DNA from: an uncultured Thiomicrorhabdus sp.
GTDB taxonomy: Bacteria > Pseudomonadota > Gammaproteobacteria > Thiomicrospirales > Thiomicrospiraceae
Assembly (NCBI GenBank): GCA_965603495.1
Contig: CBFDDF010000008.1
Span: forward strand, 33,887 to 97,886
DNA length: 64,000 bases
Direction: 5' to 3'
A program made the translations under genes and the position numbers. The notes below the pieces were generated by a model that saw only the letters and a program-made list of their open reading frames with translations, did no database searches and was not told where the DNA came from. Of this stretch, positions 5,839 through 32,246 are shown piece after piece. Within the stretch, counting starts at the first letter, position 1, and every line of letters starts with the position of its first letter.

Positions 5839-6486
5839 TTATTCAATCTCTTCTAGTCTAACTTTAGTTAAACCTGTTTCATTTGCATAGTTCGTTAACT
5901 CTGCTGTTGAAGTCGCGCCCATTTTAGTCATCAGGTTCTCGCGGTGCTTAGAAACCGTACGATCACTAATTTCTAGCATATCGGCAATCTCTTTAGTTTT
6001 GTAGCCTTCAGCAACCAATTTAACAACTTGTTTCTCACGAACAGATAAACGTTTATTCGTTAAGCCTGCTGCTTCTTCCAGAATTGGTTGAATCTCAGAA
6101 TGAATAAATAACTCACCCTGCATGACTTTACGAACGCCTTGAATCAACTCTTTTGGTGAGATTGATTTCATAGCAATTCCACTCACACCCAACTCAAGCA
6201 CTTCATTCCAAACATTCGTTGTTTCCGCAGCCGTCAAAACAATAACCTTGGTGTCAGCATAACGCTTCTTGATATGAGTGATCGCGTTTAAACCGCTTAG
6301 TTTTGGCATAGATAAATCCAAAAGAACCACTTGTGGTGACTTGGTTCTAACCAACTCTAAACACTCTAAACCATCTTCAGCTTCACCAACGACTTCAAAA
6401 CCCGCTTCGGCTTGCAGGATTGATTTGAATCCCGCTCTCACTAAAGCATGATCTTCAGCTAATAAAATACTAATTTTTTCAGACAT
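5839..6486 (-). CDS. NarL/LuxR-family response regulator (REC + LuxR HTH)
   Basis: ILLAEDHALVRAG, VVLLDLSMP, LSVREKQVVKLVAEG...TVSKHRENLMTKM. The ORF track starts at 6495; ATG at 6486 is more likely. Confidence 0.92.
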   Translation of the reverse strand: MSEKISILLAEDHALVRAGFKSILQAEAGFEVVGEAEDGLECLELVRTKSPQVVLLDLSMPKLSGLNAITHIKKRYADTKVIVLTAAETTNVWNEVLELGVSGIAMKSISPKELIQGVRKVMQGELFIHSEIQPILEEAAGLTNKRLSVREKQVVKLVAEGYKTKEIADMLEISDRTVSKHRENLMTKMGATSTAELTNYANETGLTKVRLEEIE

Positions 6487-6545
6487 ATAAATCACCCAAC
6501 TTGAAACGTTTTAAGTAATAACACCTAATGAAAGCATGCACTTAT

Positions 6546-8633
6546 TTATTGATTCCCATTATGACCAATCGTCATGGACTTCTCAAGGTATTTCAATCCA
6601 AACTCTAGCTTTTCTAACAGGAGATCTATTTTTTGTTGTTTAATCGGTGCATTTTTTTCATTTTTCTCAATATTTTCAATTTCTCGCAGCAAGCTGACAG
6701 TATTATCTAATTGAAACAGCATGCAGTTGCCTTTTAGATAATGTGCTTTAGCCGCTAAAGCAAACCAATTTTTGGATTGATTGTAAGATTGTAGATCCGC
6801 CAGACCAGATTCAATTTCAATCATAAAAGCATCCATTAAAGCACTAAACTGAGCAGGCACTTTTTCAACAGTATCCCAGCCATTCGCTGCGACATCGTTC
6901 TTTACCGAATTTGCAACACTCTTCTCAAGCTGCAATGGCTTCTGAGACTTTTCAGCGGAGTCTTTATGACCAATCTGTCGAATAGAATCAATCGGCTCTT
7001 TATGCTCCTGCAACAACCCAATGATTTGTGATTGTGTCACCGGCTTGACAAACCAGCCATCAAATCCAATTGAGGCAAGGGATTCACCTTCTGGAATAAA
7101 ATTAGACTCTTCACCGCCAGCAGTAATTGCATACACCCCTTTTAACTGCTTAGCCAGCTGAGGGTTTTGTGCAATACTCTGCTGAATTTTCTGGCTGACT
7201 TCAATCCCATCAAAAAAAGGCATTTGAATATCCAAAAAGACATAATCAAAAGGTTCTTCCTGGAAAATTTCCCAAGCCTCTCTGCCATCCTTTGCCTCAA
7301 ATACCGTGCATGCTTGCTCTTGTAAATAGCCTGCTAAAACCATGCGGTTAATTTTAGAGTCGTCAGCCACCAATATTTTGTAATGTGCACGGGATTCACT
7401 CAGTACATCCTTTTCTGTAGAAGTAGACGTGATATGATCTAAGTCCATTGCACCTGCAAAGCCCGCTTCCATTTCATCGGCCTCACCGAGCTCTAAATCC
7501 ACATAAAATGAAGTCCCGACACCTAGGTTTGATGTTACTGAAATCTCTCCCCCCATCAGTTCCACAAGTTGCTTAACCACAAACAAACCTAAACCAGAAC
7601 CTATATTGAAAGAACTGCCGCGACTCTCTAGCTGTGCAAAAGGCTCAAAAATACGGTCTTGCTTGTCCTTAGAAATACCTTCTCCAGAATCTGTCACCTT
7701 AAACATAAAATGATTATTTGCTTTTTCACTGACTTCAATGGAAACGCCACCGAACTGAGTGAACTTAAGACTATTTACAATCAAGTTAATTAAAATCTGT
7801 GAAATCCGTACACTATCGCCGATGACTCGGTCACGCTTGCCCAAATAAACCATCGAAATAATCAAGCCTTTATCAGTGGCAATTGATTTAGTTAATTGCT
7901 TCACATTCTCCAACACTTCTTTTAGAGAAAATGGCATCGGGTGTAGCGTGATTTCATCATATTCAGTCTGCGAATAGGTCAGAATATCATTGACTAAAAA
8001 GATGGATTGCTCAGCCGTCATATGAATGGTTCTCAATGCAGTCAGCGTCTCGGGATTGGTGATGGCACCTAGAGCTTTGTCTTGAGACTTCTCTTGCAAG
8101 CGCTCAACCAAACTACTAATACCTAATAAAGGAGAACGTAGTTCATGGCTTAACATCGCCAAGAAACGGGACTGTTTTTGATAAGATTCATTAATAAAGC
8201 GATTCTGCTGCTCTAACAGTGCTTGTCGTTCATAAAGTTGATTAACCGATAAACGCCCCTGTGAATCGACCATTTCTCGCTCAAGCTCGACCATCTCTGA
8301 GACATCAATACAGATTGCCCAAACATAACGAACGCCATCGCTTTCAAAGACTCTTAATCTATGCTGAAAGGATTGTTTGCCCTCGAGGGTATTATACGAT
8401 GCCACAAAGCGGGTATTTTTATCAGGTGTCGTAAGTACTTCTTGAATTTTGAGTGGCAGCAATGGCGTCGTATACTGGCCCGTTAAATCCTGAATATGCA
8501 CGACCGGCTTTTCAAACAAGGCTTGCAAGGCGTCAGACAACTCAAAACATTCTTTGCCATCTTCGACAGAATAGCGCCACCATAAAGCCCTATCCAACAT
8601 TTCACTGGCAAAAGCACTCTTATCAAAACTCAT
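6546..8633 (-). CDS. Cytoplasmic unorthodox hybrid histidine kinase (PAS-like N-term, HisKA, HATPase, REC, HPt)
   Basis: H-box MLSHELRSPL; QILINLIVNSLKFT; DSGEGI; GSGLGL; REC FLDIQMP; HPt AHYLKGNC. No hydrophobic TM stretch seen. Confidence 0.9.
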   Translation of the reverse strand: MSFDKSAFASEMLDRALWWRYSVEDGKECFELSDALQALFEKPVVHIQDLTGQYTTPLLPLKIQEVLTTPDKNTRFVASYNTLEGKQSFQHRLRVFESDGVRYVWAICIDVSEMVELEREMVDSQGRLSVNQLYERQALLEQQNRFINESYQKQSRFLAMLSHELRSPLLGISSLVERLQEKSQDKALGAITNPETLTALRTIHMTAEQSIFLVNDILTYSQTEYDEITLHPMPFSLKEVLENVKQLTKSIATDKGLIISMVYLGKRDRVIGDSVRISQILINLIVNSLKFTQFGGVSIEVSEKANNHFMFKVTDSGEGISKDKQDRIFEPFAQLESRGSSFNIGSGLGLFVVKQLVELMGGEISVTSNLGVGTSFYVDLELGEADEMEAGFAGAMDLDHITSTSTEKDVLSESRAHYKILVADDSKINRMVLAGYLQEQACTVFEAKDGREAWEIFQEEPFDYVFLDIQMPFFDGIEVSQKIQQSIAQNPQLAKQLKGVYAITAGGEESNFIPEGESLASIGFDGWFVKPVTQSQIIGLLQEHKEPIDSIRQIGHKDSAEKSQKPLQLEKSVANSVKNDVAANGWDTVEKVPAQFSALMDAFMIEIESGLADLQSYNQSKNWFALAAKAHYLKGNCMLFQLDNTVSLLREIENIEKNEKNAPIKQQKIDLLLEKLEFGLKYLEKSMTIGHNGNQ

Positions 8634-12006: not shown

Positions 12007-14313
12007 TTATTCATTCGTAATGGGAAACTCTAGCCAGAAAGTTGAACCTTGCCCCAAAGTACTTTCAACGCCAATATTTCCAGACATCATTTCGACTAGT
12101 TTTTTACTCAAAACCAATCCAATCCCAACGCCTTGAACATTGCTGTTTTCTTTACCTAAGCGATTAAATTTAAGAAATAAAGAAGCCATTTCTTTTTGTG
12201 CCAAGCCAACTCCTTGATCTGTAAATGAAATTCGAATAGTCTCTCCACTCCTTTGACAATCAATCTTTAAGAAACCGCCTTCAGAATTATACTTAATCCC
12301 ATTAGAAATCAGGTTAAAGACCACTTGCTTGAACCTTTGCTTGTCCACATCTATTGTCTCTTGTGAACAGTTCTGAAAATCAAACGACACTTTGACGTTC
12401 CTTTTATCAGCTGCCGATTGTAACAAAGCCATATCATTCAAATGTAAGTCACTAATCAGATAAGGAGCGGAATTGAGCAATATCCCTCCTCTTTCAACAC
12501 CACCTAAATCCAACACGCCATTAATCAAAGCCAATAAATCTTCGCCAGCATTGTAAATTTCATCAATACCACCTTTAAATTCTTGAGGGAACTCTTGCTG
12601 GTGTCGTAAAATTTCAGCATAACCTATGATGGCATTTAACGGAGTCTTTAATTCATGGCTCATACTGGATAAAAATGCACCTTTGACTCGACTGGCTTCT
12701 TCTGCATGTTCCTTAGCTTTAACCAACAAAGCTTCCGTTTCCTTCCTTTTTGAAATATCTCGCAAAACTAAGGTGTAAAAAATTTTATTTTGTTGCTGCC
12801 ACGAAGTTACCGTTATTTCAGCATCTAATTTTTCACCCTGATGAGGTAATAACTCAATTTCAAACAAAGACCGTATATCCTCTCCTTCTGCACCAATATC
12901 CAGTTCTAAGCAACTTTCAAGTTTTTTTCGAGCATCTTCTGCCATAAACTCAAATAGAGAACCGCCAAGTATCTCTGCCTCACTACTTGCAAACAGGCGT
13001 TCCGCTGCAGGGTTGGTGAATAAAATGACGCCCCTGTTATTGACAGTAATAATCGCGTCTAGAATGCTTTGAGAAACGCTTTTAAAACGCTGTTCATTTA
13101 ATTTGAAATGAAACAACATATTAGCCATTTCTCGACCTCTTTGAGCTCGATACCGAAACATAGAGACGACTTGATCTGGCGATATGCCTTTGTTTAAAAA
13201 GTCTTCAGCACCCGCTTCTATAGAAGAAAACCTTACTTCTTCACTATTACTATTTGTTAAAAAGATAATCGGAATATAAATAAATTCCTTGACTTGTTTA
13301 ATAAGTTTAGCCAACTCAATTCCATTACAATCTGGCATATACATATCAACAACAATTAAATCAGGTAAAAAGCTATGCGCATACTCCATCACTTTGTCAG
13401 CGTGGTTTAACGTTAATACTTTCATTCCAGCGTTTTCAAGCAAGGTTTTATAAAAACGGGTAACAGAGACATCGTCATCAATAATCATGACCTTTAAACT
13501 GTTTTCCGATAACCTACTGGTCAGTCCTTCTATTGTATCCACCAATTCATATATTGAGAACGGTTTGCTCATGTAGCCATCAGCCCCAGCCCTTACCGAA
13601 GCTAATCTGGCGTGGAAATCATTGCGGACAGAAATAAACAGCACCGAACATTGAATTAAACCTTCATCTCTCGCTTTTTGAATCAACGCTGTCCCGCCCA
13701 GGGCATCGTCCTGCAATACGATATCCATCAAAATAAGATCGGGTTCAAATGAAAGTTCAGACTTAAAGTCTTCTATCCCTGTCAGCCCTTTTACCGTAAA
13801 ACCAAAATGACTCAAAATATTGGTCATGGCCTGCAGCTGCTCGGGAGAGTCTTCAATAATTAATATTTTTTTATCACTATTTTCATTCAATCTATTACTT
13901 GATAAACTTTCCTCACTTTCCATTAATGAGTGAATAAGTTCCATATTGGAGGAGTCTGCTTGACGTATCCCCCCCCCTAGAGTCTCAATCATTTTTCCGG
14001 CCATTTTCAGTGATTCGGAATCCATTGAAGCACTTTTCTCCAACTTTAAAGTAGCCAAAAATTCCTCAACAGACCTGGCAGAATGACTTACTTCATCCAA
14101 ACTATACATTGCTGCAGAGCCACTTAAGCTATGAACTAGGCGGGTTAACGTTTGCATATCTTCAGGCTGAGTATCAGTCTCTGTTTTTGTGCAACGTTTA
14201 TAAGCAAGCTGAATCTCTTGATAACGACTTGGTAACCCGTCAATAAACTCCGCTTTTAATTGATCCAACTTTTGCTTAATTGCACTTAAAGTGTCGCTCT
14301 CTTGATTAACCAT
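12007..14313 (-). CDS. Cytoplasmic hybrid kinase HPt-REC-REC-PAS-HisKA-HATPase
   Basis: HPt LVHSLSGSAAMY; REC1 DLILMDIVL; REC2 DLIVVDMYMP; PAS ILDAIITVNNRG; H-box SMSHELKTPL; DQGVGL, GVGIGL. Confidence 0.88.
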   Translation of the reverse strand: MVNQESDTLSAIKQKLDQLKAEFIDGLPSRYQEIQLAYKRCTKTETDTQPEDMQTLTRLVHSLSGSAAMYSLDEVSHSARSVEEFLATLKLEKSASMDSESLKMAGKMIETLGGGIRQADSSNMELIHSLMESEESLSSNRLNENSDKKILIIEDSPEQLQAMTNILSHFGFTVKGLTGIEDFKSELSFEPDLILMDIVLQDDALGGTALIQKARDEGLIQCSVLFISVRNDFHARLASVRAGADGYMSKPFSIYELVDTIEGLTSRLSENSLKVMIIDDDVSVTRFYKTLLENAGMKVLTLNHADKVMEYAHSFLPDLIVVDMYMPDCNGIELAKLIKQVKEFIYIPIIFLTNSNSEEVRFSSIEAGAEDFLNKGISPDQVVSMFRYRAQRGREMANMLFHFKLNEQRFKSVSQSILDAIITVNNRGVILFTNPAAERLFASSEAEILGGSLFEFMAEDARKKLESCLELDIGAEGEDIRSLFEIELLPHQGEKLDAEITVTSWQQQNKIFYTLVLRDISKRKETEALLVKAKEHAEEASRVKGAFLSSMSHELKTPLNAIIGYAEILRHQQEFPQEFKGGIDEIYNAGEDLLALINGVLDLGGVERGGILLNSAPYLISDLHLNDMALLQSAADKRNVKVSFDFQNCSQETIDVDKQRFKQVVFNLISNGIKYNSEGGFLKIDCQRSGETIRISFTDQGVGLAQKEMASLFLKFNRLGKENSNVQGVGIGLVLSKKLVEMMSGNIGVESTLGQGSTFWLEFPITNE

Positions 14314-14324
14314 GTACCTTCCAC

Positions 14325-17300
14325 CTATTCAACTTCTATCGGTTTAATTGACGCCAACCATGATTTAAGCCAAAGCTTGAATTCTGTTTTATTCATCGGC
14401 TTGGCGATAAAGTAACCTTGAACCATGTCGCAGCCTAATGCCTTAACCACATTCCACTCTTCTTCAGTCTCAACCCCTTCAGCAACAATGCTAAGGTTTA
14501 AGCTTTTCGCCATCTCAACGGTCGATGTCAAAATAATTCTAGAATCAGTATCCTGGTCGGACCTATGGACAAAAGAACGGTCTAACTTCAACTCTTTGAA
14601 TGGAATACGCTGTAACGTTTCCAACGATGAAAAACCAGTACCGAAGTCATCAATAGACACGCCAATTTTTTGCATTGTCAATCGAGTTAATATTTCAAGC
14701 GCAACCGCGGGGTCTTTCATGACCCGACTTTCTGTCACTTCGATAATAATATTTTCTAAAAATAAATGTGCATTATCTGCTTCACTTATCAAATAGTCAT
14801 ACCAAGATAAATCAGTTAAGGAATCGCCAGAAATATTAACCGATACCTTTAGGTTGTATCCTTGTTTAATCAATTCCCCCGTAAATAAAAATGCCTTCTT
14901 AATGACCACTTCGGTCAAGCCAGAAATTAAACCTTCTTCCTCAACCCTCGAAATAAAACTTGCCGGACTGATGAACCCTCGTTGTGGGTGATTCCAGCGA
15001 ACCAACGCTTCCATACCCATTGGTACTTTTGTTCGCATGGACACCTTAGGTTGATAGAATACTTCAAACTGGTCTTGGTCTAAGGCCTCTAAAATTTCCT
15101 CTCGAGCAATTTTTACTTCAGGCTGACACTCTTTACTTTGGACTTTTTCCGTAGGTATGAAGCGCTCTACGATTTCGACAATCGATTCGATTTTAATCGG
15201 TTTTTCAAGCACACCAATAACATTCAAATCATGCATATCTGCAAGCCTATTCGCTGCTTTCAACACCTTGATATCCTCACCACTTATCAATATAACCGCC
15301 CCAGAGAATTGATGGGAGGCTAATAATCTTAATACTTCCATACCATCCATATCTGGCATATTTAAATCACAGAAAATAACATCCACTTGATCTTTATGTG
15401 TTGAGATGTGATCAAGTGCTTCAGCACCTGAGGTCGTTAAGAAGATACCACCAACTGAAAGCTTTTCTAAAATCGTTGATAAAATTTCTAGTATAAATAG
15501 ATCATCATCTACGACCATCACATTCAAACCAGATGACGCAGGAGACTCAATCACATCATTAGGGGCAAGCTGTTCAAGCTGACAATAAGACGCTATAAAG
15601 GCTTCAACATCATCCATTCTCGGAAAAATAGACGGTACCAAATTTTTCAAAACATCAATGTCATTTTGTTTTGCGGCACTTTCGATCTGCTCCACAATAT
15701 TCGCGAAAGAATCTGCACCAATCGTTCTGGTGGATGATTTTAATTTATGGGCGACATTTTGGACAGCTACCAGGTCGTTAGCGTTAAAAGCCTCGCTTAA
15801 AATTTTGAGATCTTCCGGCGTTGTTTTAATGAAATCTTTTAAAATGTTACAGTTTAATTCAAGGTCGTCTCCCACCAGAGCCTGCAGTGCTTTAATGTTG
15901 ACGCAGGGTTCCTCAAATGCCAGCTCATTTACAGGAATATTTGAGTTTTGAACTTCTGATAATACAGGCATTGCATCTGTACTTTGACTCAACCAATGAT
16001 TCAGCTTTTCTTCTAAAATATTAAGGTTAATCGGCTTCGATAAATAATCATCAACTCCTGATTCGAAGAACTCCGTTTTTGATGCTTCCATAGCATCTGC
16101 TGTTGCCGCAATAATAGGTAGGCGTGTTTGTTGGCCTTTCTCACTCATCCGAATCTTTTTAACCAATTCGATACCACTCATTTTAGGCATGTGAATATCG
16201 GTTAACAGCAGATCGAATTGACCTACCTGTAATAACTCCCAAGCCTCTTGACCATCACCCGCAATTTTAGACTGATACCCCAGTAGTGATAATTGCTGAG
16301 AAATCACATGCTGATTTATGACATTATCTTCTGCGATTAAAATCCTATAATCCGCTGCCTTCATTTGCTTGTCGGCATCAATATGAATAACGCTGTCGGT
16401 TAAATTCTCGCCACTTTCCTCAACAAAAGGTTCAGATGGAAACGTCACTTTAAATGTCGAACCGATACCTAACTGAGTTTCTAGACCCAATTCTCCACCC
16501 ATCATCTCAACTAGCTGCTTAGTGATAACCAGTCCAATTCCTGAACCTTCAATATCACTAAACTCAGCCCCCAGACGATTGAATGGCGTAAATAGCAAGG
16601 ATCTTCTTTCTTCTGAAATGCCTAAACCGGTATCTCTGACACCGATAGTCAAGCGATTGTTTTGATCGACCTCACAGGTAATGTCAACCAAACCATCTTT
16701 ACGGTTATATTTAATTGCATTAGAAATAAAGTTTATAAACACCTGTTTGATGCGACGTTTATCAACCAAGATACCTCGCCCTGGACAGGTACTTGTAACC
16801 TCGAGCTTAACACCATATTTCTGCGCTAAAGGATTCATCAAAGAACAGGCTTGTGCAATTGCTTCACTGAGGTTGCACCACTCTAAATGGATATCTTTAT
16901 CACCCGCTTCAATTTTTGCGAGATCCAAAACCTCATTGATTAAGTTTAATAGATGTTCACCCGCACTATAAATCTCGCTCACATTTTGAATAATTGATTG
17001 ACTCAACGTTTTATCGTACTGGATCATCTGGGAATAACCCAAAATGGCGTTCAAAGGCGTTCTCAACTCATGACTCATACTGGATAAAAACTCAGATTTG
17101 GCTCTATTTGCATATTCTGCTTGCTCTTTAGCCAAGAGCAAAGCCTCTTCAGCAGCTTTACGTTCAGAGATATCCCTAACCACCCCCGTGTACATTATTT
17201 CTCCCGCCACAATCATTTCATTGACAGCAAGCTCCATAGGGAAAACACTACCGTCTTTCCGCTGTCCAGCGACCTCTCTACCAATACCAATAACCTTATT

Positions 17301-19019
17301 CTCTCTAGTCTCCCTATGACGTTTCAAATAGCCATCATGCTCTTCCTGATAAGGAGCTGGCATGAGCATTTTGACATTTTGGCCGACCATCTCTTCAGCT
17401 GTATAATCAAATATCGTTTCCACTGCGGGGTTGACGGTTTCAATAATACCCATATTATTGATGGTAACGATCGCATCCAATACGGTTTCAACAATCGCTT
17501 TAACCCTGGCTTCTTTGTCTTTAAGCGATTGTTCATAAGCTAACCGTATTTCAATACTATGAAAAAAACCTATCCCATGCCATCGTTCATTCAAAATAAC
17601 GGATGTAAAGGACAACTCAACAGGTACCTCCTTGCCATCCTTATTTTGGGTTAAAATAATTTTGTGTTGATTCAACCATTCTTTTTCACACCATTCTTTA
17701 AAAGAGCTCGTTCGACTCGCCATTTGTTTTTGAGCCGATTCAGAAAAAATTAACTCAATTAAATGCTTACCTACCACCTCTTGAAAGCCATATCCATATA
17801 AGGCTTCTGCACCCGGATTCCAGAAATCGACCTCACACAGGTCATTGACAATAATAATGCCATCGTTGGCATTGTTAGTGATGGCGTTTAAACGTTTTTC
17901 TTTTTCCGCAAGGGCTGTAAATTGTTCAAAAACAGTTAGTTGATATTCTCTTCTTCGATGTATATTGAGCATTAGGTAAACAGCAAACAAAAAGCTAATA
18001 ATTAAAGTTACACCACTGGCAATCAAAGGCACATACGTTTGCTTCGAAAGAAATCCTACTCCGACTGGTATAAAGACAAATTTCCAGTTAGCGCCATAAG
18101 CACGAGAGTCTATAGCAAAAAATTCAGTGGGACCAAGGGTTTTGAAGAAGGCTTTATTTAAAACTTTACTATCGGAATTTAGAGTTTTTTTATATTTTTT
18201 TGCGCGACTCCCATGGTAGACAATCAAATTCTTCTGATCGATGTCCTGATCATAAATATAAAATTCTAATCCACCAGGCACAGGGACATACTTATCTAAT
18301 GCATGTAAGACCAATTCAGCAAAATTTATCGACAAAATGATAAACCCATTGAATTTTCTGTGTTGCTGATATCTATCTATCACGTCTTGCGGCGCACTAA
18401 ATACTGGCATAATGACCTTAAAAGCTTCAGAATGATCCGAAACAATAGGCGCCGTTAAAAACTCAATATAAAACTGCGGTTTTCCCGTTTCCATCGCGAG
18501 TTGCAATTTATGAACCAAATCCGGGTTTTCGAATTCCTCAGTCCAGCGGACATGTTCTGCCGAAGGTTTATGCATACCAGGCGAAGCTGTATGGGTTTCA
18601 ATGTGTGTTTTTGTGTAAAAATGATCATGAGTAAATTGCTCTTGCAAAACTTGTGGGGTTATCATCCGACCTTCAGAATATCCTAAGCCACTTTTATCAT
18701 CTAAAATTAGAACCTCATTAAGCTCTTTTGAAGGGACATACGTTTGTTGCATAAACTTTTGAAATTTATCCGCAAACAATCCTTTTTCTTTGCTTTTCAG
18801 CTGGGCTAAGGATTCGCCTAAATCAATAACTTCCTCTTGTAGGGTATCTATAATAACGGCCATACGAATATTAGCTTTCTGGCTAAATTCACTTTGAACG
18901 GCCTTTTCTTCAATTTTAGAATAGTACTCAAATTCAAGTATAGAAAGTATCAAACCAACAACAAGAACAACGACAAATCCCGTGACAGCTTCTTTATCCT
19001 TAAAAATATTTAGAACCAT
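14325..19019 (-). CDS. Membrane sensor CHASE-PAS-PAS(heme)-HisKA-HATPase-REC-HPt-REC-EAL
   Basis: Two TM segments flank a CHASE-like region; FixL-like PAS; SMSHELRTPL; LLTDIHMP; VAHKLKSS; IFCDLNMP; EALVRW, DDFGTGFSS, AEGVET. Confidence 0.88.
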   Translation of the reverse strand: MVLNIFKDKEAVTGFVVVLVVGLILSILEFEYYSKIEEKAVQSEFSQKANIRMAVIIDTLQEEVIDLGESLAQLKSKEKGLFADKFQKFMQQTYVPSKELNEVLILDDKSGLGYSEGRMITPQVLQEQFTHDHFYTKTHIETHTASPGMHKPSAEHVRWTEEFENPDLVHKLQLAMETGKPQFYIEFLTAPIVSDHSEAFKVIMPVFSAPQDVIDRYQQHRKFNGFIILSINFAELVLHALDKYVPVPGGLEFYIYDQDIDQKNLIVYHGSRAKKYKKTLNSDSKVLNKAFFKTLGPTEFFAIDSRAYGANWKFVFIPVGVGFLSKQTYVPLIASGVTLIISFLFAVYLMLNIHRRREYQLTVFEQFTALAEKEKRLNAITNNANDGIIIVNDLCEVDFWNPGAEALYGYGFQEVVGKHLIELIFSESAQKQMASRTSSFKEWCEKEWLNQHKIILTQNKDGKEVPVELSFTSVILNERWHGIGFFHSIEIRLAYEQSLKDKEARVKAIVETVLDAIVTINNMGIIETVNPAVETIFDYTAEEMVGQNVKMLMPAPYQEEHDGYLKRHRETRENKVIGIGREVAGQRKDGSVFPMELAVNEMIVAGEIMYTGVVRDISERKAAEEALLLAKEQAEYANRAKSEFLSSMSHELRTPLNAILGYSQMIQYDKTLSQSIIQNVSEIYSAGEHLLNLINEVLDLAKIEAGDKDIHLEWCNLSEAIAQACSLMNPLAQKYGVKLEVTSTCPGRGILVDKRRIKQVFINFISNAIKYNRKDGLVDITCEVDQNNRLTIGVRDTGLGISEERRSLLFTPFNRLGAEFSDIEGSGIGLVITKQLVEMMGGELGLETQLGIGSTFKVTFPSEPFVEESGENLTDSVIHIDADKQMKAADYRILIAEDNVINQHVISQQLSLLGYQSKIAGDGQEAWELLQVGQFDLLLTDIHMPKMSGIELVKKIRMSEKGQQTRLPIIAATADAMEASKTEFFESGVDDYLSKPINLNILEEKLNHWLSQSTDAMPVLSEVQNSNIPVNELAFEEPCVNIKALQALVGDDLELNCNILKDFIKTTPEDLKILSEAFNANDLVAVQNVAHKLKSSTRTIGADSFANIVEQIESAAKQNDIDVLKNLVPSIFPRMDDVEAFIASYCQLEQLAPNDVIESPASSGLNVMVVDDDLFILEILSTILEKLSVGGIFLTTSGAEALDHISTHKDQVDVIFCDLNMPDMDGMEVLRLLASHQFSGAVILISGEDIKVLKAANRLADMHDLNVIGVLEKPIKIESIVEIVERFIPTEKVQSKECQPEVKIAREEILEALDQDQFEVFYQPKVSMRTKVPMGMEALVRWNHPQRGFISPASFISRVEEEGLISGLTEVVIKKAFLFTGELIKQGYNLKVSVNISGDSLTDLSWYDYLISEADNAHLFLENIIIEVTESRVMKDPAVALEILTRLTMQKIGVSIDDFGTGFSSLETLQRIPFKELKLDRSFVHRSDQDTDSRIILTSTVEMAKSLNLSIVAEGVETEEEWNVVKALGCDMVQGYFIAKPMNKTEFKLWLKSWLASIKPIEVE

Positions 19020-19108
19020 TATCCAAGTTTCCTCAATTGCATCTATGTATAAGGCCAGATTCTATTTTAGTCAGAATCTGCTCTTTATTTGACGGCTTCA
19101 CGATAAAA

Positions 19109-19537
19109 TCACGAGCCCCTAAGGTCGAGGTTTTTTCTGAGCACCTCTACCGATCGCATGATTGCCGCATTAAAAACCTGATGATCGTATAAAGGATTCA
19201 CAATAACATAATCGTTAAAGACTTCATCCTTACAGAGTTCGTAAGCACGCCCTGCATCGGTTGCGCAAACCATCAATACCGCTCTGTGGTTTTGCAGACC
19301 TTTAACTTTTTTGATGATGTTTAAATAAATATGTTCTGATTTAGAAAGGGTTTTAGCACCAATTAGAATGATGTGCGGATGTTCTTTTTTACAAATTTCC
19401 TCTGCTTCAGTAATCGTCATTGCAACCTGGTAATCTGCAAAATCTGTTGCTAAATGCGACTTCAAATCCGTCAGTAAACCCTGATCATCCATCACAAATA
19501 AACAAGGTAATCGTTTATCATCAAATAGTTTTTTCAT
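19109..19537 (-). CDS. Stand-alone pseudo-receiver protein (Gly at the phosphoacceptor position)
   Basis: Receiver-like pattern CLFVMDD...PHIILIG...FNDYVIVNP; 69/132 identical, ungapped, to the N-terminus of 20067..21203 (manual count). Confidence 0.7.
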   Translation of the reverse strand: MKKLFDDKRLPCLFVMDDQGLLTDLKSHLATDFADYQVAMTITEAEEICKKEHPHIILIGAKTLSKSEHIYLNIIKKVKGLQNHRAVLMVCATDAGRAYELCKDEVFNDYVIVNPLYDHQVFNAAIMRSVEVLRKNLDLRGS

Positions 19538-20066: not shown

Positions 20067-21203
20067 TTAGAGTTTCTTGTTATAAAGAGCGGATTCAATT
20101 TTTTGAATCAACTGCTCTTTATTAGAAGGCTTGACGATAAAACCTAGTGCTCCTAAAGCAATCGCCTCTTTAACGACAGCTGGCTGACTATTTCCCGTTA
20201 AAATAATGACAGGAACATGACTGTATTTGATATTGGTTTTAAGGGTTTTCAACACAAAGGAGCCCATAATATCAGGCAGAGTCCAATCCAAAATAATGAC
20301 ATCTGGATGACATTGAGCAATTAATTCAATGCCTAACTTTCCGGTGGACGCTTGTTTAACAGTAAAGCCTTCCGAGACCAGAACCCTGGACAATACCTTT
20401 AAATAAAAAGGATCATCCTCAATCAGTAAAATAGTTCTTGGTATTATTGCTTGAGAAAGTCCCGCGTTAATTTCATCGTAGGATTTATTAGAAGCCTCTT
20501 CTAAACCATCCAATATTGAGGACGCAGCTTTATCGGCCTTATCCAAAGATTGGTTCAAGGAGTTTGAAAACTCTGTAAGGCTTTTGGTTAAGGCCTTAGA
20601 ATCCTTAACGGTCTTAATATCATTGATGACTTTACCGGTAAATTGGTCAATATTATCAGACAACTCCGCTTTCATCTTCTGTTGACTGGCGCGTGCTTCA
20701 TTGCGAAGTTCAGCTTCAATCTTTTTATTTTCGTCCGTTGCTTTCTTTAGTTTTCGGAGCTGAAGATCAACATCTGATGATTTATTCTGATTATTGTGTT
20801 CTTGGATGACTTCAATGGCGCGAAAAATTGCCGAGTTAAAAATCCCTTTATCAAATAAAGGGTTCACAACGATATAGTCGTTAAATACTTTATCCATACA
20901 CAGCTTGGCTGCTTGCTCAGAATCAGAAGCTTGTACCATTAATACCGTGCGGTGAAATTGCGAAACCTTGTTATTTTTAATTAACTTTAGATAAAGTTCG
21001 TGTGACTTAGCAAGGTCTTCCTTTCCAAATAACATAATGTGCGGTTGGGATTTTTCAACAAACTCTTCTGCCTCTACTGCCGTGACCGCAAGCTCGTAAT
21101 CATTAAATTGCTTTCCTAAGTTCGATTGAAGGTCATACACTAAATCTGGGTTGTCAATAATAAACAAACAGGTCAATCGATTATCGTCGAATATTTTTTC
21201 CAT
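20067..21203 (-). CDS. Response regulator: pseudo-receiver + helical linker + canonical REC
   Basis: N-terminal paralog of the 19109 protein; C-terminal REC ILLIEDD, IILDWTLP, ILTG, FIVKP intact. Confidence 0.82.
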   Translation of the reverse strand: MEKIFDDNRLTCLFIIDNPDLVYDLQSNLGKQFNDYELAVTAVEAEEFVEKSQPHIMLFGKEDLAKSHELYLKLIKNNKVSQFHRTVLMVQASDSEQAAKLCMDKVFNDYIVVNPLFDKGIFNSAIFRAIEVIQEHNNQNKSSDVDLQLRKLKKATDENKKIEAELRNEARASQQKMKAELSDNIDQFTGKVINDIKTVKDSKALTKSLTEFSNSLNQSLDKADKAASSILDGLEEASNKSYDEINAGLSQAIIPRTILLIEDDPFYLKVLSRVLVSEGFTVKQASTGKLGIELIAQCHPDVIILDWTLPDIMGSFVLKTLKTNIKYSHVPVIILTGNSQPAVVKEAIALGALGFIVKPSNKEQLIQKIESALYNKKL

Positions 21204-22155: not shown

Positions 22156-22476
22156 TTATGCTTTATTTTGTTTTAAGAATTTTTTGAGGTTATAACGGTA
22201 GATAAATCCTGGAAATGCGAAGATTATGAACATGAACAAGGCGATGGTGTAGAACTCCCACGTTTGCGGTGAAACATGCCCCATGCTCTTATTTTCGAGT
22301 AAATAGGCAAACATGCCTGTAATGAAGAAGTAGACGAACCATTCAATTAGGTTTACAACAATGGACTTGTGCGGCACCTTAATAAATAAGAAGAGTCTAT
22401 TACTGAGTATGAAAGGGATATTTGCTAAAACGATTGCTGTGATAAGCAATAACCAAACAGCTTGATTTAATTCCAT
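22156..22476 (-). CDS. DUF2818-like small membrane protein
   Basis: ANIPF and WEFY...FAFPGFIYRY motifs; position directly after nuoN is typical of this family. Confidence 0.75.
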   Translation of the reverse strand: MELNQAVWLLLITAIVLANIPFILSNRLFLFIKVPHKSIVVNLIEWFVYFFITGMFAYLLENKSMGHVSPQTWEFYTIALFMFIIFAFPGFIYRYNLKKFLKQNKA

Positions 22477-22494
22477 GATTTACGTCCTTAAATG

Positions 22495-22515
22495 AAAAAA
22501 GCCCGATACTCGGGC
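22495..22515 (-). terminator. Intrinsic terminator after nuoN
   Basis: Minus strand GCCCGA-GTA-TCGGGC-TTTTTT. Confidence 0.8.
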
Positions 22516-22535
22516 TCTAATTGAATACGATTTGG

Positions 22536-23981
22536 TTAGAAAGCTTTGAGACTGTGATAACAAAGATCAATCAATGAACTAGGTAGCAACCCAAGCACAA
22601 CCAGCAATATTGCAGTAAAGCTTACCGCCCAAGTTAAACTTGGATTAACCGGCTCTAGAGGTGATTCATCTTCCGCCTTATCAAAATACATGGCCTTAAC
22701 GACTTTCAAGTAATAGAAGGCACTGATAACGGCCATAATCACGGCAAGAACCGCAAGCCATGTGAACCCTGCTTTAACCACTTCTTCGATAACGACAATC
22801 TTGGCCCAGAAGCCAACAAACGGTGGGATTCCTGCCATTGAGAACAGTACAATCAACATCATGACCGCTAACCAAGGGTTACGAACGTTAAGTCCTTTAA
22901 AGTCTGATATTAAATCGAACTCTTTTCCAGTACGTGATAAAGCGATAATCATCCCAAAACCAGCCACACCCGTGATCGCGTAAATAATCACGTAGAACAT
23001 TGCTGCTGAATAACCTTCTGGGGTTGCAGCGATCACACCTAGTAATAAGAAACCGATATGACCAATACCTGAGTAAGCCAATAGACGCTTTAGGTTGTCT
23101 TGTGCAATCGCAACAATAGAACCAATAACCATTGATAAAATCGAAAGGATGATAATCAGTGACTGCCAATCCTCAATGAGTCCAGGCATGCCTTCTGCCA
23201 GCAGACGGTAAAGCATTGCAAAACCGGCAATTTTTGGTGCAGTACCAATAAACAAAGTCACGGCGGTAGGCGAACCATGGTAAACATCCGGTACCCACAT
23301 GTGAAATGGCACAGCACCGAGCTTAAATGCGAGACCAATGACAACAAAAACAACACCAAAAGAAAGCACTACGCTATCAACTTTGCCTGATGCAATAATT
23401 TTGGCCATTTCTGGGAAAGTAATTGAGCCTGTTGCGCCATAAATCATAGAGAAACCATATAGCAACATACCAGTTGCTAAGGCACCCAATACAAAGTATT
23501 TAAGGGCTGCTTCAACCGCATGACCACTGTCTTTACGTAATGCAATCATGGCGATGGTAGCCAGGGATAGGATTTCCAACCCTAGATACATCGTGATCAT
23601 ATTGTGGGCAGAAATCATGACGAACATGCCCAAGACACCAAACAATCCTAAAATGAAGAATTCACCACTGTAGAACTTCTGCTGCTGTAAGTATTCTCTT
23701 GAAAAGAGGAAAATACCCATCGAAATTGCAATCGTAAAGAGTTTTAGAATATCAGCAAAACTATCACGTACAAAACTGCCATCAAAGGTAATGATTTGAG
23801 CGGTGGTAAAGCTGGTTAATATTAGGTAACCAACTACGACTAAACCGACCTGAGTCGCATAATAGGTAGCAAATTGATAACGTTTTGACCAAAAGGTATC
23901 TGCAACCAAGATAAAAGAGATGAGCGCTAATAACGCCATCTCTGGTATTGCGGGTGCAAATGCTGGAATCACAAAATTCAT
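22536..23981 (-). CDS. nuoN: NADH-quinone oxidoreductase subunit N
   Basis: EAALKYF, FKLGAVPFHMWVPDVY, KRLLAYS, GIPPFVGF; operon position. Confidence 0.97.
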   Translation of the reverse strand: MNFVIPAFAPAIPEMALLALISFILVADTFWSKRYQFATYYATQVGLVVVGYLILTSFTTAQIITFDGSFVRDSFADILKLFTIAISMGIFLFSREYLQQQKFYSGEFFILGLFGVLGMFVMISAHNMITMYLGLEILSLATIAMIALRKDSGHAVEAALKYFVLGALATGMLLYGFSMIYGATGSITFPEMAKIIASGKVDSVVLSFGVVFVVIGLAFKLGAVPFHMWVPDVYHGSPTAVTLFIGTAPKIAGFAMLYRLLAEGMPGLIEDWQSLIIILSILSMVIGSIVAIAQDNLKRLLAYSGIGHIGFLLLGVIAATPEGYSAAMFYVIIYAITGVAGFGMIIALSRTGKEFDLISDFKGLNVRNPWLAVMMLIVLFSMAGIPPFVGFWAKIVVIEEVVKAGFTWLAVLAVIMAVISAFYYLKVVKAMYFDKAEDESPLEPVNPSLTWAVSFTAILLVVLGLLPSSLIDLCYHSLKAF

Positions 23982-24004
23982 ATTGTTAACTCACCTATTC
24001 CGAA

Positions 24005-25519
24005 TTAAAGTTTAGAGGTTGTTGCTTGAACAAGTAACTGTTCAACAGAAGTATGCATGACTTCCATTAATGGACTTGGGAACACACCCAGTGCAATAAT
24101 CGCAATTGCAAGTGTCGCCATAATGGCAAACTCACGTTTATTTAGATCTTGTAGCTTCTCAACGTTTTCGTTGGTCACAGGACCAAAGAAGACACGTTTA
24201 ACCATCCATAGGGTATAAGCGGCACCGATCACCAATGTAAGTGCGGCAAGTGTTCCGTACCAAAGGTTTGCTTTGAAGGCACTTAGGATAACCATGAACT
24301 CACCGACGAATCCAGAAGTACCCGGAAGCCCTACGTTCGCCATAGAGAAGATCACTGCAAACAAAACGAACCATGGCATTTTATTAACCACGCCGCTATA
24401 AGCCGAGATTTCACGCGTATGCATTCGATCGTAAAGCACCCCAATTGCTAAGAACATCGCGCCAGAGATGAAACCGTGGGAGATCATCTGAACCATCGCC
24501 CCTTCCATCCCTAACTGTGCACCTTGCATTGAGCCTGTTGACTGAACAATGTCATACACTAAGAACATACCGAGCGTTACGAATCCCATGTGAGAAATTG
24601 AGGAGTAAGCGACCAATTTCTTCATATCGTTTTGTGCAAGCGCCACGACACCGATATAAACGATCGCGATTAATGATAATGCAATGACTAACCAATCTAA
24701 TGTCATGGAAGCATCTGGCGTAATCGGCAAACTAAAACGAACGAAACCATATCCCCCCATCTTCAACATGATTGCAGCAAGGACGACTGAACCAGCTGTC
24801 GGTGCTTCAACGTGCGCGTCCGGTAACCAAGTATGTACTGGAAACATTGGAATCTTAACGGCGAAGGCTGCTAAGAACGCCAAGAAGATCAGAATCTGTG
24901 CAGTCATGCCTAAATGCATGCCTTGGAAATCAAGAATCGAGAAGCTACCTGATTGGTAATACATATATAGGAATGAAACCAACATGAATACCGAACCTAA
25001 GAAGGTATACAAGAAGAACTTCAAAGTCGCATAGACTCGACGTGGTCCACCCCATTTACCGATAACGATAAACATTGGAATTAATAGCGCTTCCCAGAAT
25101 ACATAGAACAGAATAGAGTCGAGTGCAACAAACACACCAACCATAATCCCACCCATAATAAGGAAGGCACCCATATACTGTTCAACACGGTCTTTAATCA
25201 CGTCCCATGCAGAAGCAATCACTAGCACTTGTGTAAATGTGGTTAGCAATACCAAAGGCATAGACAGACCATCAACCCCTAAGTGGTAGTTGATATTGAA
25301 CATGGGGATCCATGCTACAGTTTCAACAAATTGCATAGAAGCAGTCGAATTGTCGAATCCAATCCACAATGGAATTGAAAGAATAAACGTTAACCCAACG
25401 GTTATAAGTGATAACCATTTTGCGACAGTATCGTTATTACGACCTGCAAACAGTACTAATAGACCACCCAAAATAGGTAGCCATATCAATGTACTTAAAA
25501 TAGGAAAGCTTGTTAGCAT
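24005..25519 (-). CDS. nuoM: NADH-quinone oxidoreductase subunit M
   Basis: FYVFWE, KIPMFPVHTWLPDAHVEAPT, KKLVAYSSISHMG. Confidence 0.97.
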   Translation of the reverse strand: MLTSFPILSTLIWLPILGGLLVLFAGRNNDTVAKWLSLITVGLTFILSIPLWIGFDNSTASMQFVETVAWIPMFNINYHLGVDGLSMPLVLLTTFTQVLVIASAWDVIKDRVEQYMGAFLIMGGIMVGVFVALDSILFYVFWEALLIPMFIVIGKWGGPRRVYATLKFFLYTFLGSVFMLVSFLYMYYQSGSFSILDFQGMHLGMTAQILIFLAFLAAFAVKIPMFPVHTWLPDAHVEAPTAGSVVLAAIMLKMGGYGFVRFSLPITPDASMTLDWLVIALSLIAIVYIGVVALAQNDMKKLVAYSSISHMGFVTLGMFLVYDIVQSTGSMQGAQLGMEGAMVQMISHGFISGAMFLAIGVLYDRMHTREISAYSGVVNKMPWFVLFAVIFSMANVGLPGTSGFVGEFMVILSAFKANLWYGTLAALTLVIGAAYTLWMVKRVFFGPVTNENVEKLQDLNKREFAIMATLAIAIIALGVFPSPLMEVMHTSVEQLLVQATTSKL

Positions 25520-25553
25520 GTATTCCAGTCCCTTATCTTCTTATTCTTCTTAA

Positions 25554-27527
25554 TTACCAAAGTGTCCAAACTAGCATCGCTAGCAGGCCTAAAATCATGA
25601 CAAATGCATAGTGATACATAAAACCTGTCTGTGTTTGACGTAACACGGCAGCAGAGTTAGCCACTGACATAAAGATATTTGTCACCATACCGATATCAAT
25701 GATTTTAGTATCCACAACACGGCTAAAGAAATGACCTAGCTTTCTCATACCATCGACAAAAACGATGTCATTTAAACGATCGAAACCATATGCACTATCC
25801 AGCACATAGAAACCACGCGGACACATCTGTTTTAACTTAGCCGGCATTGTCGGTATTTTGATATACATCAACCATGCTAAGAAGACACCTGAAACCGCTA
25901 AGATAACTGGTAGAGTTAGCAATGAATGCACAACCATATCTACAGCGCCATGGAAGTAGTTAGTGTAGACCGCTAGCATGACGTCATTCGCTGGCTGTAC
26001 ATAGACAGAGTCGCCGAAATAAGCACCGGTTAACATCGGCTCAATCATTGGTAATCCCATGAGTGCCGCAGGAATAGCCAACAACACTAATGGCACTGTT
26101 ACGACCCATGGAGACTCTTTAATCTGATGTGTCTTCACATATTCACTTTCTTCACCGTGGAACACCAGGAAGAACATACGGAAGCTATAGAATGCCGTGA
26201 TGAATACACCCGCCATCAATAATACATAAGAGAAAGATGAACCAAAACGCTCTGCTTCATCAAGCGACAATAAAATACTATCTTTTGAAAAGAATCCTGA
26301 GAAGCCTGGAAACCCAATCAGCGCTAATGAACCAATCAGCATGGAAATATAAGTAATCGGCATGTACTTCTTCAAGCCACCCATATCGGAAATTTCTTGC
26401 TTGTGGTGCATTGCGATAATCACTGAACCTGCTGCCAGGAACAACAACGCTTTAAAGAATGCATGTGTTAATACATGGAACATCCCTGCCGCGTAGGCTG
26501 ATGCCCCCATTGCTGCAATCATATACCCCAATTGAGACAAGGTAGAGTAAGCAACGACACGTTTAATATCTGTCTGTATTAAGCCTAGCAACCCCATTAG
26601 GAACGCCGTTAGTGCGCCGATAATCAATACCACACTCAAAGCCGTTTCAGATAATTCGAATGCTGGAGACAAACGTGCGATTAAGAACACCCCTGCAGTA
26701 ACCATTGTTGCCGCATGGATTAAGGCAGAAATAGGCGTTGGACCTTCCATGGATTCTGGAAGCCAAACATGTAGCGGCATTTGCGCTGATTTACCCATTG
26801 CACCAACGAATAATAGAATCAACATCAAAGTAATCATTGACCATTCAACGCCAGGGATGACTTCAATCATAACGTCTTTATTGGCCGCTAACTGAGCGAA
26901 GAATTCATTGTAGTCCATGGTATTGAAGTAAACGAAGACCACTGCAATCCCTAGAATGAACCCTAAATCACCCACACGGTTGACTAAGAATGCTTTCAGG
27001 TTTGCTTGAATGGCTGATTCACGCTTCATATAGAAACCAATCAACAAATATGAAACAAGTCCTACTGCTTCCCAACCAAAGAACAGTTGTAAGAAGTTAT
27101 TTGCCATAACCAATGACAGCATTGAAAAAGTAAACAATGAGATATAGCTGAAGAAACGCTGATAGTAAGGATCGTTATGATCGTAATCTTCATCATGATC
27201 CATATAACCTACCGTGTAGATATGCACCATTAAAGAGACAAACGTCACAACCAACATCATCGTTGCAGAAAGCTGATCAATCATAAAGCCGATTTCAAAA
27301 CGGATGCCGTCAGACACCATCCAGGTATACAGGCTCGCGTTGTAGGCTTCTGTACTATTCAATACAAACATATTAAATACATAAGCAGATAGCAACATTG
27401 AAATTGCTACGCCAATAATGGTTGCGAAATGCGCTCCACTACGGCCAATTTGTCTTCCCAATAGTCCAGCAAGCAGAGCGCCGATAAGGGGAGTAACAAG
27501 AATTAAAGTTAAAATCGTATGTAACAT
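25554..27527 (-). CDS. nuoL: NADH-quinone oxidoreductase subunit L
   Basis: GWEAVGLVSYLLIGF, GKSAQMPLHVWLPESMEGPTP, HAFFKALLFL. The track starts at TTG 27533; ATG 27527 is more likely. Confidence 0.97.
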   Translation of the reverse strand: MLHTILTLILVTPLIGALLAGLLGRQIGRSGAHFATIIGVAISMLLSAYVFNMFVLNSTEAYNASLYTWMVSDGIRFEIGFMIDQLSATMMLVVTFVSLMVHIYTVGYMDHDEDYDHNDPYYQRFFSYISLFTFSMLSLVMANNFLQLFFGWEAVGLVSYLLIGFYMKRESAIQANLKAFLVNRVGDLGFILGIAVVFVYFNTMDYNEFFAQLAANKDVMIEVIPGVEWSMITLMLILLFVGAMGKSAQMPLHVWLPESMEGPTPISALIHAATMVTAGVFLIARLSPAFELSETALSVVLIIGALTAFLMGLLGLIQTDIKRVVAYSTLSQLGYMIAAMGASAYAAGMFHVLTHAFFKALLFLAAGSVIIAMHHKQEISDMGGLKKYMPITYISMLIGSLALIGFPGFSGFFSKDSILLSLDEAERFGSSFSYVLLMAGVFITAFYSFRMFFLVFHGEESEYVKTHQIKESPWVVTVPLVLLAIPAALMGLPMIEPMLTGAYFGDSVYVQPANDVMLAVYTNYFHGAVDMVVHSLLTLPVILAVSGVFLAWLMYIKIPTMPAKLKQMCPRGFYVLDSAYGFDRLNDIVFVDGMRKLGHFFSRVVDTKIIDIGMVTNIFMSVANSAAVLRQTQTGFMYHYAFVMILGLLAMLVWTLW

Positions 27528-27533
27528 TAACAA

Positions 27534-27839
27534 CTACCCTTTTAGTGCACTAAGATCATCAACATTGATGCTCTTACGTTTACGGAAGACTAAAACAACT
27601 ATCGCCAAACCAATGGCCGCTTCAGCAGCGGCAACCGTTAGGATAAAGAATACGAAAATCTGGCCTGTCACATCATTTAAATAATGTGAGAAAGCCACTA
27701 AATTGGTGTTAACAGCCAACAAAATTAACTCAACGGCCATTAAGAGTATGATGATGTTTTTTCGGTTAAGAAAAATACCTGCAATACCGATCATAAACAA
27801 CACCGCACCAAAAATTAGGTAATCAGATAAAGCGATCAT
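27534..27839 (-). CDS. nuoK: NADH-quinone oxidoreductase subunit K
   Basis: [22 protein letters not shown]. Confidence 0.97.
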
Positions 27840-28477: not shown

Positions 28478-28494
28478 ATTGAGTTCGCTTTCCG

Positions 28495-28986: not shown

Positions 28987-28998
28987 GTCACCCTCTAA

Positions 28999-30063: not shown

Positions 30064-30065
30064 TA

Positions 30066-32177: not shown

Positions 32178-32246
32178 AATTCTTTAACCTAAGTTTTCTG
32201 ATGGAACCCAATAATCGTGACCTATCCAATACCTGGAAGGTGCCAC

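Follow-up and report, generated by a model that had tools for sequence, protein, structure and literature searches.

The stretch of DNA considered here (the window) is 64,000 nucleotides long and comes from an uncultured Thiomicrorhabdus sp. (contig CBFDDF010000008.1, positions 33,887 to 97,886). On its minus strand, at 14325..19019, lies P0001, a gene for a protein of 1564 residues. A sequence-only reading of the window had proposed that sensors, kinase, a complete His-Asp-His-Asp phosphorelay and a phosphodiesterase for cyclic di-GMP (c-di-GMP) were fused into a single membrane-bound device, presumed rare and insulated from cross-talk. The analysis described below makes it probable that P0001 is an intact member of a widespread fused family, in which an unorthodox hybrid kinase (TorS/BarA/ArcB-type) is joined to its cognate REC-EAL regulator (RocR/PvrR-type), with a FixL-type O2-sensing front end. 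The Thiomicrorhabdus copy appears to add two inputs, a private periplasmic domain between its transmembrane (TM) helices and a predicted FixL-type haem PAS domain directly before the kinase. The protein is a combination of known parts; it represents no new type of system or signalling chemistry.

The P0001 frame is uninterrupted over its 1564 codons and the ATG is preceded by GAGGA, 8 nt upstream. From the N-terminus, the domains follow in the order TM, periplasmic domain, TM, PAS, PAS, HisKA, HATPase, REC, HPt, REC and EAL; this series, previously read from the letters in a single chain, was reproduced by Pfam and a hydropathy scan. The scan showed that ~295 residues are enclosed between the two TM helices. 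The Pfam Response_reg match (E = 6e-43) was reported over two stretches, 893–1006 and ~1167–1283, and the linker preceding the second is a low-complexity segment of ~20 residues. The features of the gene are as follows:

14325..19019, minus strand: whole gene P0001, fused sensor kinase, phosphorelay and EAL phosphodiesterase, 1564 residues (open frame, Pfam)
18924..18992, minus strand: TM1, residues 10–32 (Kyte-Doolittle 19-residue window >2.0)
18039..18923, minus strand: periplasmic sensor domain, residues 33–327, an orphan with a sub-threshold CHASE match only
17964..18038, minus strand: TM2, residues 328–352 (hydropathy scan)
17610..17894, minus strand: PAS1, residues 376–470 (Pfam PAS_8/PAS_3; matches in PDB weak only)
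17145..17525, minus strand: PAS2, predicted FixL-type haem-binding PAS, residues ~499–625 (phmmer against PDB, residue mapping; Pfam boundaries 505–621)
16902..17102, minus strand: HisKA/DHp with phospho-His650, residues 640–706 (Pfam, 3e-18)
16431..16763, minus strand: HATPase_c with N767, D796xGxG and G825xGxG intact, residues 753–863 (Pfam, 1e-23)
16002..16343, minus strand: REC1 with phospho-Asp941, E897/D898, T973 and K995, residues 893–1006 (Pfam)
15651..15845, minus strand: HPt with phospho-His1091 in an HKLKSS motif, residues 1059–1123 (Pfam Hpt, 1e-11)
15522..15584, minus strand: flexible HPt-REC2 linker, residues ~1146–1166 (sequence; split point in relatives)
15171..15521, minus strand: REC2 with phospho-Asp1218, D1171/D1172, S1246 and K1273, residues ~1167–1283 (second Response_reg stretch; RocR alignment)
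14397..15101, minus strand: EAL phosphodiesterase domain, catalytic residues complete, residues 1307–1541 (Pfam, 9e-70)

A motif scan located H650, D941, H1091, D1218 and E1337, with DDFGTG at 1457–1462 and EGVE at 1514–1517, exactly where they had been numbered by hand. Conservation was assessed by aligning P0001 with its best 120 database homologues (35–57% identity). The four relay residues (H650, D941, H1091 and D1218) were invariant throughout, and the earlier statement that all of them are present was thereby upheld. Equally invariant were the N, G1 and G2 boxes for ATP binding; the acidic pocket, Ser/Thr and Lys positions of both receivers (in REC1, E897, D898, D941 and K995); H1091, K1094, S1095 and G1101 in the HPt; and E1337, N1395, E1427, E1430, D1457, K1478, E1514 and Q1534 in the EAL domain, along with its DDFGTG and EGVE motifs. 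This conserved block began at residue ~616 and extended as far as the C-terminus; the sensors on its N-terminal side were variable (GAF, PAS_3, CHASE-type and others). P0001 holds all the catalytic and relay residues that a four-step phosphorelay needs, together with an EAL domain that is, to judge by its sequence, active.

The C-terminal part of the chain could be compared directly with a known regulator. Residues 1160–1564 aligned end to end with RocR (PDB 3SY8, RocR residues 3–385; E = 5e-58), though at an identity of only 32%. In this alignment, RocR D56 corresponded to D1218 and S84 to S1246; E175, R179, N233, E265 and E268 corresponded to E1337, R1341, N1395, E1427 and E1430; and D295, D296, K316, E352 and Q372 corresponded to D1457, D1458, K1478, E1514 and Q1534. 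Loop 6 of the EAL domain was intact (DDFGTGFSS). The roles of the RocR residues were placed on P0001 by this alignment. On its sequence, P0001 was interpreted as an entire unorthodox kinase to which its RocR-type regulator is joined by the ~20-residue linker.

RocS1/RocR and PvrS/PvrR of Pseudomonas aeruginosa, and VieS/VieA of Vibrio cholerae, likewise combine a HisKA-HATPase-REC-HPt kinase with the REC-EAL phosphodiesterase that it feeds; in these systems kinase and regulator are separate, whereas in P0001 they form one polypeptide. The sensors also differ, being SBP_bac_3/PAS in RocS1 (PMC12051241), and a putative haem PAS plus an orphan periplasmic domain in P0001. Comparison with the named families was carried out feature by feature. 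The full receiver residue set and the full EAL catalytic and metal-binding set of the RocR/PvrR/VieA type were found, but that type is a stand-alone, soluble protein of ~400 residues, while the corresponding module here is the C-terminus of a 1564-residue membrane protein; the PvrR NCBIfam model covered residues 1165–1552 with 318 bits, against an equivalog cut-off of 580. The features of unorthodox (ArcB/BarA/TorS/BvgS-type) kinases were present too (i.e., the HisKA histidine, the N/G1/G2 boxes, and REC then HPt in the chain), but such kinases end in the HPt and have a separate regulator, whereas the HPt of P0001 continues in frame to REC2-EAL (1167–1564). The TorS model covered residues 629–1125, and the equivalog cut-offs were missed for TorS (337 against 676 bits), BarA (309 against 890) and ArcB (299 against 838). 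PAS2 and the adjoining kinase core are alike to FixL, for which P0001 scored 229 bits against a cut-off of 850. Since the module is not stand-alone, the HPt is not C-terminal and all NCBIfam equivalog cut-offs were missed, P0001 was placed in an unnamed fused family and in no named one.

A single frame of this length might instead result from an error of sequencing or assembly, or from recent loss of a stop codon, that joined two genes without functional consequence. A genome of the same genus (G014) lends this some colour, in that both parts lie there in the same frame with one TGA exactly in the linker: HisKA-HATPase-REC-Hpt is followed by the in-frame stop, which aligns inside the HPt-REC2 linker of P0001, and then by a REC-EAL of 419 residues. 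However, the same 1564-residue sequence was called, residue for residue and with the same neighbours, on 8 contigs from other public assemblies (e.g., ENA ERZ25073496), and therefore the fusion is not a one-off assembly error. Furthermore, the three nearest homologues (55–57% identity) and dozens of distant clusters are fused likewise, with the position of the linker conserved, and P0001 fell with P0005–P0007 in a clade of fused proteins only (Shimodaira-Hasegawa-like approximate likelihood ratio test, SH-aLRT, 100). That the single frame is an artefact was considered extremely improbable. Met1168, checked as an internal start for a separate REC-EAL product, had no convincing Shine-Dalgarno sequence before it; scans for promoters and terminators gave background-level scores only. 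As regards the TGA in G014 (L082, 2725–2730), this single codon parts two same-frame halves; it may be a genuine boundary between genes, the result of a nonsense mutation, or a codon that is read through.

Split forms were encountered among the relatives of P0001, and their relationship to fused forms was examined with a tree of 85 REC-EAL modules, 45 of them fused in one group. In genome G399, a kinase of 980 residues and a REC-EAL of 400 residues are encoded by genes overlapping by 8 nt. Five stand-alone regulators of such split pairs were placed among the 45 fused modules in one group (SH-aLRT 89), with RocR and regulators from Pseudoalteromonas, Vibrio and Shewanella outside it. Parsimony required at least four changes between fused and split states, of which only one or two were forced by strongly supported branches. 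On this tree the fused and the split form interconvert, fusion being an evolutionarily labile and recurrent state. Given the split kinase and REC-EAL pairs in relatives, and the end-to-end alignment with RocR, the original framing of P0001 as a fused RocS1/RocR- or VieS/VieA-type pair was accurate.

The genome of the source organism also contains a paralogous hybrid kinase (G000:C1:111870–115029, a frame of 1024 residues), whose PAS domain is 59% identical to P0001 residues 456–627 and is probably, from this similarity, a FixL-type haem PAS also. An open reading frame of 590 residues containing an HPt lies ~1 kb downstream of this kinase, and an EAL protein is encoded at C1:120993; the kinase, with the nearby HPt frame and EAL protein, may be a split counterpart of P0001.

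The supposed rarity of the fusion was not sustained. Among the matches listed, no fewer than 120 clusters (90% identity) contained HisKA, HATPase, REC, Hpt and EAL together. When the 949-residue core from HisKA to EAL was searched against 1.84 billion representatives at 50% identity, and the best 150 were examined (down to 406 bits), 63 of these gave a single alignment from HisKA to EAL (query positions 1–940); about 14 more combined a REC-HPt-REC-EAL stretch with a second stretch, in proteins of >1000 residues. Within the class, the fused core was verified by Pfam in 3 of 400 species genomes (G146, G311 and G212) and two further cases were cut by contig ends, for a total of ~1%. P0001 belongs with these proteins by its contiguous HisKA-to-EAL alignment and by possession of all relay and catalytic residues conserved in the 120 homologues. 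Apparent fusions of REC-HPt-REC-EAL in Pseudoalteromonas rubra, Corticimicrobacter and others were rejected, as tracing of the open reading frames resolved them into stand-alone REC-EAL genes (408–480 residues) beside separate kinases.

The fused family has no name, most of its members being annotated only as 'EAL domain-containing protein', and no description or test of the fused HisKA-to-EAL architecture, or of a FixL-EAL hybrid, was found in the literature searched. The architecture is therefore common but uncharacterised; only the first half of the outcome that had been set as a refutation, 'common and characterised', was realised. The best-studied precedent for an all-in-one two-component protein is given by the Bacteroides hybrid two-component systems (HTCS), in which membrane sensor kinase and regulator are likewise one polypeptide (PMC11253607); these proteins belong to another phylum and run through a single His-Asp step to a DNA-binding output of the AraC type, without HPt, second receiver or c-di-GMP enzyme. 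SgmT of Myxococcus xanthus is a hybrid histidine kinase that likewise bears a C-terminal c-di-GMP-related domain, GGDEF (PMC3509222), but this is a degenerate receptor for c-di-GMP and not a relay-controlled enzyme, and the protein is without an HPt-REC2 pair.

The sequence-only reading did not recognise the haem-type character of PAS2. In phmmer searches of PDB, PAS2 matched the FixL haem domains of S. meliloti (1D06, E = 8e-34) and B. japonicum (8JS5 and 1DP6, E = 3e-31) and the haem PAS of DosP/EcDOS (E = 7e-16); identity to the FixL haem domains was at least 41% over 129 residues. Residue mapping equated His200, Arg206 and Arg220 of B. japonicum FixL with H561, R567 and R581, and Ile215, Leu236 and Ile238 with V576, L597 and V599. 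In FixL, His200 is the proximal ligand, Arg206 and Arg220 couple O2 binding or haem ligation to the kinase, and the three remaining positions are distal and hydrophobic. The NCBIfam FixL model aligned contiguously over residues 489–862, covering PAS2, HisKA and HATPase (model positions 108–481 of 485), which places PAS2 directly N-terminal to the kinase core, as in FixL-type sensors. This haem-PAS motif is shared with 12 or more of the 120 homologues in the family. PAS2 was accordingly predicted to be a FixL-type haem-binding domain. Because it matches the FixL haem domains and keeps the proximal histidine and signalling arginines, the cytoplasmic cue of P0001 is probably O2. In FixL itself, the kinase is off when O2 is bound and on in the deoxy state. 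No FixJ-type gene was found in the P0001 operon; the REC-GerE gene of the window (5839..6495) adjoins a different kinase.

Another cue could be at work if PAS2 reported NO, CO or redox state, or had lost its haem, the periplasmic domain then being the dominant input. Haem PAS domains of this type bind several gases, Ile215 of B. japonicum FixL is replaced by valine, and both PAS1 and the 295-residue periplasmic domain have been retained. The retention of His561, Arg567, Arg581, Leu597 and Val599, and the level of identity to FixL already noted, speak for O2 instead, as does the organism, an aerobe that dwells in gradients and for which the obvious variable is O2 (PMC1635747). A cue other than O2 was judged unlikely. 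Elsewhere in the fused family, a globin gene (133 residues; L111, 9518–9919) is convergent with the gene for P0019, a GAF-PAS fused kinase-EAL, their 3' ends overlapping by 4 nt on a metagenomic contig, and genes for the periplasmic nitrate reductase (nap) lie near this locus; globin and nap are another hint of an O2/redox theme.

The periplasmic domain had been called 'CHASE-like'. Its position between two TM helices was confirmed, but the label was not: CHASE (PF03924) scored 17.0 bits with the whole protein and 20.1 bits with the isolated segment, below the gathering score of 25, and the match covered only profile positions 93–187 of 189, i.e., the C-terminal half. A word-indexed search of a 5.8-billion-protein database with residues 30–370 returned, among long proteins, only the query itself, nor did any homologue of the domain emerge when 40 related genomes were searched in six frames. 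An AlphaFold2 (AF2) single-sequence model was unusable, with a predicted local distance difference test (pLDDT) score of 34. With a sub-threshold score, a match to half of the model and no homologues from which to build a profile, identity with CHASE is unproven.

The mechanism proposed for P0001 is drawn at every step from FixL and RocR. As O2 falls, the haem of PAS2 would be left deoxy and the kinase would turn on, with the periplasmic domain and PAS1 adding a second cue. His650 would autophosphorylate, and the phosphoryl group would pass to Asp941, then to His1091, and finally to the tethered Asp1218; phosphorylated REC2 would alter the activity of the RocR-type EAL domain. The change would more likely than not be an activation. 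Low O2 would then result in lower c-di-GMP, favouring motility or detachment in a microaerophilic gradient organism. FixL differs in phosphorylating a separate transcription factor, FixJ, in one step, whereas the P0001 kinase is predicted to lead through REC-HPt-REC-EAL to hydrolysis of a second messenger. DosP (EcDOS) and AxPDEA1 likewise unite an O2-binding haem PAS with an EAL domain in a single chain (P0001 EAL against DosP EAL, E ~1e-38), but the haem domain of DosP controls the EAL allosterically via PAS/GGDEF linkers; in P0001 an ATP-driven four-step relay lies between, without GGDEF.

Several points weigh against this reading. Haem binding, kinase activity, phosphotransfer and phosphodiesterase activity of P0001 are each deduced from residue conservation. 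NO, CO or redox state can likewise act on haem PAS domains of the FixL type, and the periplasmic domain is an orphan among the proteins and genomes searched. The phosphodiesterase activity of VieA is reportedly independent of phosphorylation, and for RocR itself the consequence of phosphorylation is not settled. There was no orthologue of P0001 in 24 other genomes of the genus; P0001 is accessory within the genus, and its phenotype is not transferable from relatives. Finally, the participation of neighbouring genes, considered next, is limited to a small clade.

The genes flanking P0001 bear on whether the chain forms a closed circuit. They are as follows:

12007..14313, minus strand: P0002, 768 residues, HPt (H61)-REC (D197)-REC (D323)-PAS-HisKA (H553)-HATPase (Pfam, site positions)
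19109..19537, minus strand: P0003, 142 residues, with relic 19035..19537; no Pfam match
20067..21203, minus strand: P0004, 378 residues, receiver-like N-domain, long helical hairpin and REC with D306 (Pfam REC 258–370)

P0002 starts 11 nt past the P0001 stop; its domain order is unusual and reversed, with the HPt first, and all its phosphorylation sites are present. P0003 lies 89 nt upstream of P0001 and P0004 another 0.5 kb upstream. The N-domain of P0004 has a beta-alpha pattern without acceptor Asp and Lys, and no Pfam match; it was labelled a 'pseudo-receiver' on account of that pattern and of the missing residues. It is followed by a helical hairpin of ~130 residues. In an AF2 model the REC of P0004 was confident and the N-domain of low confidence (pLDDT 40–69). 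P0003 was 51% identical to P0004 residues 1–135, i.e., to the N-domain; after its stop, another frame still reads DFIVKPSNKEQILTKIESGL, which matches the C-terminus of P0004, and a 72-nt stretch (19051–19122) was 74% identical to the 3' end of P0004. Together, P0003 and the out-of-frame relic are an internally deleted paralogue of the P0004-type partner, and they stand immediately upstream of the kinase, a place held in relatives by the full-length gene.

The closest relatives retain such partners. Beside P0005 (57% identical to P0001; L104), a gene of 388 residues, 52% identical to P0004, abuts the kinase gene. The row of genes at P0007 (55% identical; L108) consists of one resembling P0004 (40% identity), then the fused kinase, then one resembling P0002; this last lies directly downstream and is 38% identical to P0002 over its full length. 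The flanking genes conserved in the closest relatives contribute additional REC and HPt domains as well as another kinase, a sign of a branched circuit; the insulation from cross-talk inferred in the sequence-only reading was not supported. For the clade of P0001, P0005 and P0007, the extra receivers, second HPt and second kinase in a conserved operon probably indicate a branched circuit, in which P0004 and P0002 share phosphoryl flux and the chain is not closed. Most other, more distant family members are orphan genes without partners, and the idea is therefore confined to this small clade; the description 'self-contained' is apt for the orphans.

Conservation of these neighbours also lends itself to a different account of REC2, in which REC2-EAL is not a regulated output at all: the EAL domain would be constitutive or controlled by oligomerisation, and REC2 would serve as a phosphate sink that sets flux to the receivers of P0004 and P0002. 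The P0004-like and P0002-like genes beside the closest homologues fit this account, P0004 has an intact REC (D306) with a long helical region typical of an adaptor, and such receivers are established in other relays (CheY1 of S. meliloti). However, the 120 homologues show no variation in the acidic pocket, Ser1246 and Lys1273 of REC2 or in the EAL catalytic residues, and in the orphan members, which have no other receiver nearby, the tethered REC-EAL must be the output. A role for REC2 as a sink alone was regarded as improbable, and REC2-EAL is preferred here as the relay's own output. A bolder proposal, put forward tentatively and with little confidence, is that the P0004-P0001-P0002 trio forms a two-kinase, two-HPt logic circuit, in which the haem sensor gates the ATP-driven four-step relay to the stoichiometrically tethered phosphodiesterase, unlike the direct allostery of DosP, and P0002 and P0004 tap or feed that relay. 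If so, P0001 would be the first example in which a haem-based O2 sensor is shown to reach c-di-GMP by way of a phosphorelay; it would also serve as a 'local sink' anchored in the membrane, with kinase and phosphodiesterase fixed at 1:1.

Some further observations concern the surroundings of these genes. In the complete genome G010, of the same genus, the flanking MYG1 and DUF2818/nuo genes are 57 kb apart, and no clean empty site for the four-gene block was found there. After the three-gene module of P0007 comes a gene encoding a BLUF (blue-light FAD) protein (L108, 7928–8311). At L105 (12545–14237), P0008 is followed by an overlapping gene for a single-domain REC of 136 residues and by a convergent DUF3391 plus HD_5 (HD-GYP-type) gene, the latter representing, by its domain type, a putative second kind of c-di-GMP phosphodiesterase at that locus. 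Within the window, a separate two-component pair occupies 5839–8633 on the minus strand, comprising a HisKA-HATPase-REC hybrid kinase of 695 residues and a REC-GerE (NarL/FixJ-type) regulator; a C-terminal HPt in this kinase is borderline (24.3 bits, or 24.7 with its neighbours, against a cut-off of 24.6). At 22156–34037, also on the minus strand, a DUF2818 gene is followed by the apparent distal part of an NADH:quinone oxidoreductase (nuo) operon, in which two Proton_antipo_M subunits were confirmed by Pfam and the other genes were assigned by size and order only.

The source organism was assigned to Thiomicrorhabdus by its fumarase, which is 82–88% identical to those of named species. Its relatives possess one cbb3 oxidase only, of high affinity; they inhabit redox gradients and encode many PAS, GGDEF and EAL proteins (PMC1635747). 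The source genome itself, at 2.64 Mb, encodes ~22 full EAL domains along with 6 HPt domains, and a link from O2 to c-di-GMP is ecologically sensible for this organism. Direct links from stimulus through kinase to phosphodiesterase are rare in the literature, despite very numerous receiver-bearing c-di-GMP enzymes (PMC8846402). With O2 sensor, whole relay and enzyme in one chain, P0001 would provide a self-contained system for study in vitro, requiring no search for a cognate partner, and the natural split and fused versions allow a direct test of what is gained by tethering, be it speed, insulation or stoichiometry. In a sulfur oxidiser that is microaerophilic and lives where O2 and sulfide gradients are steep, P0001 suggests a way to link O2 availability with whether cells attach or are motile.

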